This document shows, piece by piece, positions 3,992-4,200 of a stretch of 8,262 bases of DNA. Position 1 is the stretch's first letter. Every line of letters begins with the position of its first letter. This stretch comes from a virus. Lineage: Duplodnaviria; Heunggongvirae; Uroviricota; Caudoviricetes. Under the pieces are notes generated by a model. The model did no database searches and was not told the DNA's origin. It worked only from the letters and a program-made list of their open reading frames with translations. Location: IMG/VR virus record IMGVR_UViG_2529292873_000013; one strand, written 5' to 3'. The position numbers and the translations under genes were made by a program.

Positions 3992-4200
3992 GCGCAGCCG
4001 GAAATAAAGGGATAACGATGATAGTTTGAGAAAAACAGAAATAACACTTTTGTGGCAAAGCATGGTGCCGGGTGCCTCCCGGTGAATTCAGTACCAGCAC
4101 CTGAATCCGCGATTATCCCATATACCTGGTTGCTGATTGCCCCTCCGCACAGGGGGATTCACCATGCAGTAGTATTTTTAATAAACAGTAAACAAAAAAA

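Follow-up and report, generated by a model that had tools for sequence, protein, structure and literature searches.

Identification of an STnc100-family RNA gene

The stretch of DNA analysed here (the window; 8,262 nucleotides (nt), IMG/VR record IMGVR_UViG_2529292873_000013, from a virus of the Caudoviricetes) contains an intergenic segment between a 55-amino-acid (aa) open reading frame (ORF) for a DUF3927 protein and a nanS-p-type sialate O-acetylesterase gene. In a preliminary description made from the letters of the sequence, three inverted repeats were noticed in this segment, and either a tRNA remnant or a small structured RNA was proposed. It was found that the segment is a known element. 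A scan against all Rfam models matched it to STnc100 (RF02076) at 4193..4027(-) with 101.6 bits (E-value, 7.1e-22). The match is full-length (model positions 1-206) and lies above the curated gathering threshold of 47 bits. An EcOnc04-type RNA was detected bound to Hfq in E. coli O157 in 2014. The preliminary description had staked its proposal on a covariance-model match or conservation in related prophages. Both were found, the latter in the form of relatives in many genera. It had overlooked that the RNA is encoded on the minus strand.

Other hallmarks of STnc100 are also present. The window has the closing helix around CCCCU/AGGGG, the variable hairpin and the CCGGG/CCCGG hairpin, and the element lies in a lambdoid late region in the orientation of the late genes. 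Both published STnc_100 quantitative PCR primers match the window exactly, at 4147..4166(-) and 4074..4093(+). The 3′ terminator hairpin of the model (approximately positions 170-197) is missing, and only 2 nt of the window copy were aligned to the 24-nt terminator block of the model. This hairpin is a variable feature rather than an excluding one, because at least five unrelated types of tail and terminator occur across the family.

I conclude, with a probability of roughly 0.8, that 4167..3973(-), with a start possibly at ~4193-4200, is the gene for a prophage-encoded, Hfq-associated small RNA (sRNA) of the STnc100/PasD family, EcOnc04 subtype. This analysis itself established to which family the RNA belongs, its strand and helices, the covariation of the pseudoknot, the terminator, the gene context and that the segment is non-coding.

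Conserved core and pseudoknot

Related cores were aligned with MAFFT after dropping sequences more than 93% identical to each other, which left 54 non-redundant relatives. The core is about 108 nt long and consists of four helices, P1 to P4, and a pseudoknot, with nearly invariant junction and loop bases (Table 1). All three repeats of the preliminary description are enclosed by an 8-base-pair (bp) pair, GCATGGTG/CACCATGC, which is the closing helix P1. All three exist in the sequence, displaced by no more than about 2 nt from the positions given there, and two of them proved to be true helices. CCGGG-tgcct-CCCGG, given there at about 4066..4080, lies at 4068..4082 (arms 4068..4072 and 4078..4082) and forms P4, and CCCCT/AGGGG (4140..4144 and 4151..4155) forms P2. 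The third, TGAATCC/GGATTCA, is present in the DNA at 4102..4108 and 4155..4161 with 46 nt between its arms. As a conserved helix it was rejected, with 66.9% of the cells paired, zero compensatory change and a result no better than that of shuffles.

Over the four helices (of P3, the outer part) and the pseudoknot, 92.2% of the cells have standard pairs, as against at most 49% in slid registers. The covariation score was 0.254 versus at most 0.074 in slid registers, and none of 500 shuffles scored as high. In P1, the pair at alignment columns 10-153 is G-C in 32 relatives and A-U in 19, and the natural variant GAUG/CAUC in place of GGUG/CACC is compensatory. The outer four pairs of P3 are 99.5% paired with GC/AU/UA/CG swaps. 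P2 and P4 are too invariant in sequence for covariation to be tested, while a natural C-to-U variant of P2 yields a U.G wobble. The pair of P3 at columns 102-130 is G.U in 29 of the 54 relatives and would read A.C on the opposite strand. Thus, the RNA is on the minus strand of the window.

The stretch following P2 is complementary to the loop of P3, and the two sequences differ by lineage. The window has AUCAGCA/UGCUGGU, and the other versions are CUGGUG/CACCAG, CCAGUC/GACUGG, GCCAGUC/GACUGGC, CAGCC/GGCUG and UAACC/GGUUA. This pseudoknot was assessed by permutation, comparing own with swapped partners; both regions were set from the conserved anchors alone, which avoids circularity. The mean longest helix was 6.78 bp with the own partner and 5.38 ± 0.16 bp with swapped partners, and none of 2000 permutations reached as high a value. 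Shuffled segments gave 4.76 bp. In the MAFFT alignment, all five pseudoknot columns have changes on both sides, despite register shifts. There is no mention of a pseudoknot or of a promoter in the 2026 preprint on PasD and STnc100, and the consensus structure line that Rfam gives in the search output is nested only.

Two blocks of the core are nearly invariant. The first is UGGUGAAUCCCCCU-RNGCGG-AGGGGC (listed also as UGGUGAAUCCCCCU..GCGGAGGGGC) and the second is ACCGGGAGGCACCCGGCACCA. Between the two blocks lies a domain of variable sequence and length.

Folding energy by itself was rejected as evidence. On the minus strand, the minimum free energy had z-scores of -0.83 and -1.16, and on the plus strand the z-score was -1.88. 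None of these is significant, and the minimum-energy fold fails to give the conserved structure. Significance comes from the covariance-model match and the comparative data, not from the folding energy. The minimum-energy fold of the single sequence is dominated by the complementarity of GGGAUAA (4113..4119) to UUAUCCC in the tail (4009..4015). This pairing is absent from two relatives with the same tail and another middle domain (L029 and L152), and the relatives with the same middle domain have other tails. It is probably due to chance, but it could mask the tail in the subtype of the window.

Table 1. Features of the RNA locus and neighbouring genes in the window
Feature	Position	Strand	Basis or remark
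Minimal transcript, ~195 nt, first base of P1 to end of U-run	3973..4167	-	Rfam match, PasD 5′ ends, EcOnc04 probe
-35-like hexamer TTGATT	4199..4204	-	best sigma-70-like match in scored search
-10-like hexamer TAAAAA (putative)	4175..4180	-	18 nt after TTGATT, ends 8 nt before P1
Alternative -10-like hexamer CATAAT (speculative)	4207..4212	-	inside 3′ end of DUF3927 ORF; read from sequence
P1 5′ strand (closing helix), GCAUGGUG	4160..4167	-	pairs with 4060..4067
Junction AAUC between P1 and P2	4156..4159	-	invariant alignment columns
P2 hairpin CCCCU-GUGCGG-AGGGG	4140..4155	-	100% of cells paired, nearly invariant
Pseudoknot 5′ strand AUCAGCA	4131..4137	-	pairs with UGCUGGU 4093..4099
P3 hairpin GGAUUCAG-GUGCUGGUA-CUGAAUUC	4084..4108	-	pair counts of relatives; loop 4093..4099 is pseudoknot 3′ strand
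P4 hairpin CCGGG-AGGCA-CCCGG	4068..4082	-	99.6% of cells paired, nearly invariant; directly abuts P1 3′ strand
P1 3′ strand, CACCAUGC	4060..4067	-	inverted-repeat search and pair counts of relatives
U-rich, mostly single-stranded 60-nt tail; proposed seed and Hfq-contact region	4000..4059	-	folds open alone
Intrinsic terminator GGCUGCGC-AUG-GCGCGGCC + U8	3973..3999	-	terminator scan; stem 3999..3981, U-run 3980..3973
Equivalent of EcOnc04 Hfq crosslink peak	3907..3964	-	Sakai 2188592..2188649 mapped via L210
DUF3927 ORF, 55 aa (upstream neighbour)	4201..4368	-	Pfam PF13064, E-value 1.5e-16
nanS-p-type sialate O-acetylesterase, 645 aa (downstream neighbour)	1949..3886	-	Pfam: DUF1737 + SASA + DUF6645
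Antiterminator Q	4965..5786	-	Pfam PF03589
Two terminator-like hairpins right after Q (candidate pR′ leader and tR′)	4931..4915, 4884..4867	-	terminator scan

Promoter, tail and terminator

Promoter-like elements were searched for over 100 nt with sigma-70-like scoring. In 41 of the 54 relatives the best match has a -10 element ending 5-10 nt upstream of P1, where ~8% would be expected by chance. Many of the relatives with such a P1-proximal match have the TG of an extended -10 element. In the window, TTGATT overlaps the TGA stop codon of the DUF3927 ORF, and the same flank exists at the PasD1 and PasD2 loci. Judged from this sequence geometry, a promoter at a fixed distance would place the start near G4167. 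The PasD 5′ ends estimated from RNA sequencing (RNA-seq) fall at the homologous G of GCAUGG, in agreement with this position. On the other hand, an alternative 5′ end at ~4193..4200 would make the transcript 221-228 nt long. The CATAAT hexamer would set a start at ~4200, which fits the size of EcOnc04 (~222 nt), but it is without a good -35 element. The boundary of the Rfam match (4193) also points to ~4193-4200. Thus, the 5′ end may lie anywhere within 4167..4200: the promoter geometry and PasD favour ~4167, while the EcOnc04 size and the Rfam boundary favour ~4193-4200.

The core is followed by the tail and by a terminator with an 8-bp GC-rich stem and U8, which starts 60 nt after P1. An intrinsic terminator with its U-tail and a preceding U/A-rich stretch form an Hfq-binding module, as established in work on sRNA terminators. 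The window has one mark of the class of Hfq-dependent base-pairing sRNAs, a terminator with at least seven U residues preceded by a U/A-rich single-stranded stretch. The homologous tail of PasD bears the seed and the chimera sites found by RIL-seq (sequencing of RNA interactions after ligation), and the Hfq peak of EcOnc13 lies on the homologous tail. The same terminator closes PasD1 and PasD2. Among the relatives, the core is followed by a linker of 4-73 nt and then by an intrinsic terminator of one of at least five unrelated types.

The hairpin and T-run at 3999..3973(-) had been taken for the terminator of nanS-p. It sits on the minus strand upstream of nanS-p (1949..3886(-)), and therefore it ends the sRNA and not nanS-p. 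The stretch 3907..3964 lies between this terminator and the start of nanS-p, and it ends at a weak hairpin followed by U5 (3917..3932). In Sakai prophage Sp11 (L210), the terminator has a 1-nt deletion in its 3′ arm (GGCGCGGC-UUUU versus GGCGCGGCC-UUUU). Because of this deletion and of an Hfq peak beyond the terminator, read-through may be greater in the Sakai Sp11 copy than in that of the window.

Relation to STnc100, PasD, EcOnc RNAs and leader RNAs

The loci of PasD1, PasD2, H-19B and Sakai were aligned with the window. The EcOnc04 copy (Sakai Sp11; Tree et al. 2014) has essentially the sequence of the window, in the same order of a TerB-like gene, the DUF3927 ORF, the RNA and the esterase gene. 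It differs by a few single-nucleotide polymorphisms and by the deletion in the terminator. EcOnc04 was crosslinked to Hfq and gave a Northern band of ~222 nt (Tree et al. 2014), which is larger than the 195 nt from P1 to the terminator in the window. Its Northern probe matches the window at 4026..4061 in 34 of 36 positions, both mismatches being terminal. The EcOnc06 probe matches 4091..4125 with one mismatch. The probe labelled ‘EcOnc13’ in the supplement of the 2014 study matches the upstream flank of the H-19B type and not Sp3, which is either a mix-up in the table or a sign of longer 5′ ends.

The canonical STnc100 copies include that of phage H-19B, which follows stx1B, and that of Sakai Sp5, which follows stx2B. 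The latter copy is EcOnc27 and also sRNA103 of strain EDL933. It is Hfq-bound, and its variants have been flagged as predictors of hemolytic uremic syndrome. STnc100 has also been found in outer-membrane vesicles, and all 11 copies in EDL933 are transcribed. The window RNA shares with the canonical copies the helices P1-P4, the invariant blocks, the orientation and the site between moron genes and nanS-p or lysis genes. In contrast to them, it has a longer tail, a different terminator replacing the hairpin of the model, and DUF3927 instead of stx in its upstream flank. The scores against the STnc100 model are 207.7 bits for Sp5, 178.6 for H-19B, 101.6 for the window and 38-41 for PasD. The canonical stx2-linked STnc100 appears to have a 5′ extension of ~65-75 nt.

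PasD1 and PasD2 of enteropathogenic E. coli (EPEC) are Hfq-dependent RNAs of 172-173 nt that were verified by Northern blotting and equated with EcOnc13 of enterohemorrhagic E. coli (EHEC) (Pearl Mizrahi et al. 2021). Their RIL-seq partners and their seed UGUGAG map just 5′ of the terminator, and the targets carry CUCACA (Pearl Mizrahi et al. 2021). According to Zhu, Shabalina and Storz (2026 preprint), PasD and STnc100 go back to a common ancestor, and PasD is linked to a Q gene (PF03589) and a sialate esterase gene. The window resembles PasD1/PasD2 of EPEC E2348/69 (the EcOnc13 type, Sakai Sp3) in its nearly identical upstream flank, with the DUF3927 stop codon, TTGAYT and then TATTAAAAA, and in its terminator, GGCUGCGCAUGGCGCGGCC with a U-run. 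The gene order is also alike, with DUF3927 upstream, a PF03589 Q gene nearby and, for PasD2, the esterase downstream. PasD-type RNAs are Hfq-dependent and ~172-187 nt long. However, their core has diverged (P2 is CCUCC/GGAGG, and P4 and the P1 3′ strand are altered) and falls under the Rfam threshold. The tail of the window is 12 nt longer than that of PasD. PasD1 and PasD2 differ from each other by a few bases, while only the upstream flank, P1/P2 and the terminator of the window align closely with them. In place of the seed UGUGAG, the window has ...CCCUUUAUUUCC, and the PasD Northern probe, which covers the seed, has no match in the window with up to three mismatches. Thus, an identity with PasD1/PasD2 was rejected, as the seed and the core differ. 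The published probe for PasA has no match in the window either. By analogy with these near-identical and homologous copies, the window RNA is probably expressed and bound by Hfq, and its seed would be in the tail.

StxS and lambda 6S, the leader RNAs from pR′ to tR′, are likewise short terminated RNAs of prophage late operons, and StxS is also an Hfq-binding regulator. They are made constitutively, and Q-modified polymerase must pass their terminators. However, they have no similarity to the window RNA in sequence or structure. A pR′ leader comes from the Q-dependent late promoter right after Q, whereas the element of the window starts ~800 nt past Q and is separated from it by two genes and two terminator-like hairpins. 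What prompted the idea of a pR′ leader was the situation in two relatives (L031 and L044), whose elements are 200-300 nt away from Q. The idea was rejected, as a separate promoter/terminator pair directly follows Q there and in the window (4931..4867). The region 4860..4960(-) with the post-Q hairpins is likely the late-promoter leader with tR′, the slot that yields StxS in Shiga toxin (Stx) phages. Its Rfam matches (STnc370, suhB and anti-hemB) were all below threshold.

The anti-sRNAs AgvB and AsxR occupy the same intergenic region at the moron site and are convergent with the STnc100 copy in Sp5. They differ in lying on the opposite strand, in their length of 51-60 nt and in their unrelated sequence. 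None was detected beside the window copy in the all-Rfam scan.

Distribution of the family

Of 5426 complete E. coli genomes, 2836 have DNA that matches the segment, at up to 11 places per genome. The tail and terminator of the window occur in 648 genomes, with a median of three places per genome, and many of these are O157:H7. A 251-nt query over the RNA was 100% identical to a stretch of E. coli strain 2011C-4251, where RefSeq shows only a partial ‘hypothetical protein’ at this spot. Pattern scans for the family gave more than 120 viral contigs and 43 stretches from species-representative genomes. The majority of these stretches are from Enterobacteriaceae, among them Klebsiella, Raoultella, Citrobacter, Kosakonia, Superficieibacter, Pantoea, Kluyvera, Enterobacter, Franconibacter, Trabulsiella, Lelliottia and Rosenbergiella. 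A few matches in unrelated phyla lack the second conserved block and are due to chance. The 54 relatives span more than 15 enterobacterial genera.

The position of the element was compared among different prophages. In a Klebsiella-type relative (L031), a Q gene of PF06323 is followed by its own promoter-like site and terminator. Next come the promoter, core and terminator of the STnc100-like element, a further terminated unit, and then the holin gene and the endolysin gene. In L044, the element lies between a PF03589 Q gene and the holin gene. Superficieibacter has three tandem copies 257 nt apart, ahead of the lysozyme and Rz genes. The site is thus between Q and the lysis genes whatever the type of Q, and therefore the element is a self-contained cassette and not a pR′ leader.

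Several arrangements were observed in addition. In Superficieibacter electus (L175 6366..7005(-)), each of the tandem copies has its own promoter-like site, P3/pseudoknot sequence and terminator. Two copies ~470-490 nt apart exist in many viral contigs, and tandem loci were found in L008, L012, L022, L035, L051, L091 and L094. Two mosaics, L029 607..736(-) and L152, combine the upstream flank and tail of the window with an H-19B-like middle domain, which suggests recombination between family members inside the RNA gene. In an EPEC genome derived from E2348/69 (L003 2940..3150(+)), an ISEc13 insertion has removed the P1 5′ strand and a part of P2, and the end of the insertion sequence, ...TGTGTATAAGAGACAG, abuts CTGTGCGGAGGGGC. 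In L031, a convergent terminator on the opposite strand (7834..7855(+)) and then one on the same strand (7733..7710(-)) lie between the cassette and the holin gene. This suggests that the ‘convergent sRNA pair’ layout of EHEC prophages also exists in other genera.

Proposed function and alternatives

In the proposed mechanism, a sigma-70-type promoter would start transcription at or just before P1. In the lysogen, the RNA would be made on its own and would end at its own terminator. Hfq would bind the U-run end and the U-rich tail, and the tail may base-pair with mRNAs in trans, as shown for PasD. The targets should differ from those of PasD because the seed differs. The core, with the 5′ end locked into P1, probably stabilises the RNA or serves some further role. 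Until it is overridden by Q-modified RNA polymerase, the terminator may also keep transcription of the moron genes upstream from running on into nanS-p and the lysis genes. For the window copy, I infer where transcription starts, that its own tail pairs in trans, what the core does and that the terminator insulates the genes behind it.

The element is a real non-coding gene that was missed by standard annotation, in which RefSeq gives ‘hypothetical protein’ fragments, and it is not a discovery. Its family is present in over half of the complete E. coli genomes and adjoins Shiga toxin and lysis genes. The covarying pseudoknot, the almost invariant core, the promoter at a fixed distance and the exchangeable tails are comparative handles for experiments. 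The remaining interest lies in the unexplained conservation of the core and in the pseudoknot found in this analysis.

Several points weigh against the Hfq-sRNA reading. The expression and Hfq data come from other copies, none from the window itself. The ~222 nt of EcOnc04 fit a start at ~4193-4200 better than one at 4167. EcOnc27, the stx2-linked paralogue, is 235/247 nt in size, and its Hfq reads extend from -40 to +40 around P1, over the putative promoter. These sizes and reads imply that some copies are longer, are processed from an upstream mRNA or read through the first terminator. The Hfq peak of EcOnc04 is at +204..+261, past the first terminator and not on the tail. Seed-mediated target pairing was shown for PasD only, by RIL-seq, and the tail of the window differs. 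Trans pairing by this tail is thus an extrapolation, because the sole seed defined in the family is absent. The near-invariance of the core loops and junctions across genera exceeds what a plain scaffold of an Hfq sRNA would need. The P3 loop of the window has just 9 nt, and therefore the 8-bp P3 and the 7-bp pseudoknot are not both complete in this copy. The minimum-energy fold of the single sequence misses the consensus fold, with a non-significant energy. A 2022 review lists no function for STnc100.

Is the conserved core, rather than the tail, the main functional unit? With tail pairing secondary or absent, the core may specifically bind a small ligand or a protein of the phage or host, or be a decoy for it. 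Alternatively, it may act in cis on the late transcript (processing, stability or polymerase passage). The two blocks are almost invariant in more than 15 genera, including their unpaired bases, while the middle domain and the tails change freely. The core has a covarying pseudoknot, it is joined to at least five unrelated tail/terminator types, and it is always between Q and the lysis genes with any Q family. The absence of an STnc100 function from the review is also in line with such a role. However, the all-Rfam scan gave no riboswitch or ribozyme match in the segment at an E-value of 10 or below, and no adjacent partner gene is conserved across genera. In spite of its diverged core (38-41 bits), PasD is an abundant Hfq sRNA and has many partners, and Hfq peaks and chimeras lie on the tails. 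Another reading of a conserved core that comes with a variable seed is that of a stability module. I consider this alternative unlikely. In a speculative form of it, which is rather unlikely but conceivable, the ~108-nt core would be more than a scaffold of an Hfq sRNA, namely a structured RNA domain in its own right. It would have a specific partner (protein, ligand or RNA polymerase) and would be kept by lambdoid phages before the lysis genes, with 3′ tails that are swapped to retarget or to terminate the RNA.

It is quite improbable that the RNA is no gene of its own but a 3′ untranslated end, processed from the DUF3927/moron mRNA or from the late transcript, whose sole functional part would be the terminator, an insulator before nanS-p and the lysis genes. 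The element begins 33 nt past the DUF3927 stop codon, EcOnc27 and EcOnc04 exceed the distance from P1 to the terminator, and the EcOnc27 Hfq reads run over the putative promoter. StxS also illustrates that terminated late-leader RNAs can be by-products that later gain a function. Against this, the promoter-like elements are fixed relative to P1 in 41 of the 54 relatives, whose upstream neighbours differ, and L031 has a separate promoter-to-terminator cassette after its own pR′-like unit. The RNA-seq-estimated 5′ ends of PasD lie at P1, and a signal of RpoD in ChIP-exo (chromatin immunoprecipitation with exonuclease digestion) was reported at Salmonella STnc100 promoters. A bare terminator needs no invariant 108-nt core.

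A small protein is very unlikely to be encoded. The candidates would be the AUG-GUG-AAU frame from RNA position 3 (25 codons) or a 166-aa plus-strand ORF (4052..4552). An RUG triplet is found at RNA positions 3-5 in 53 of the 54 relatives, some STnc100 copies of EDL933 have ribosome footprints (ribosome coverage value up to 3.2), and RefSeq annotates ‘hypothetical protein’ fragments at this spot. However, the RUG belongs to helix P1, the first stop codon in its frame comes anywhere from codon 9 on, and the RefSeq features are flagged partial or pseudo. The preliminary description had seen no credible ORF here, which holds. None of the ORFs overlapping the segment (166 aa on the plus strand; 61 aa and 31 aa on the minus strand) has a Pfam match, and the distance from one invariant block to the other, taken modulo 3, equals 0, 1 and 2 in 20, 20 and 14 relatives, respectively, which puts the blocks in all three relative frames. 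Coding potential was thus rejected on both strands. There is no conserved reading frame, and therefore selection acts on the RNA.

The remaining proposal, a degenerate tRNA, or a remnant resembling one, at the site of ileZ/argN/argO in Stx phages, can be dismissed: although the plus strand reads ...GGGGGATTCACCA and related prophages carry tRNAs in this zone, ARAGORN found no tRNA gene in the window, the Rfam tRNA model RF00005 had no match at an E-value of 10 or below, the G.U pairs fix the functional strand as minus, the plus-strand ‘cacca’ is the complement of UGGUG within the P1 5′ strand and not a tRNA 3′ end, the fold is four helices with a pseudoknot and not a cloverleaf, and tRNAs and a family member lie side by side in Sakai Sp4, Sp9 and Sp11 and in EPEC, so that the RNA does not take the place of the tRNAs. 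Of the two proposals in the preliminary description, it is the small structured RNA that survives.

Gene context and other elements of the window

The order on the minus strand is hok/sok, DUF968, RusA, Q, the two terminator-like hairpins, a TerB pseudogene, DUF3927, the RNA, nanS-p, DUF1378, DUF826 and a P21-type holin. The RNA gene sits in the late-operon ‘moron’ zone of a lambdoid prophage and is co-oriented with its neighbours. The 55-aa ORF noted in the preliminary description exists, and it is this DUF3927 ORF. It also precedes the PasD1, PasD2 and Sakai Sp11 copies. The TerB-like gene between Q and DUF3927 (4365..4687(-)) is split into short ORFs. In the matching genome, RefSeq lists it as a pseudogene with an internal stop codon, while the TciA/TerB-like gene of Sakai Sp11 is intact.

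The sok antisense RNA of the hok/sok locus is present at full length at 7810..7984(-) (Rfam RF01794; 116.2 bits against a threshold of 59), and the gene adjoining it is annotated as hokD in the matching E. coli genome. A weak isrK-like match at 7571..7652(-) (27.1 bits, below the threshold of 50; E-value, 0.01) ends in a GC-rich hairpin with a U-run. This stretch may be a further small terminated RNA between hok/sok and the DUF968 gene. The DUF968 gene at 6168..7213(-) consists of two overlapping ORFs (252 aa and 96 aa), each corresponding to a half of the Pfam model. In strain 2011C-4251, the annotation of the corresponding locus has one DUF968 protein of 349 aa, and the split in the window may be a frameshift.

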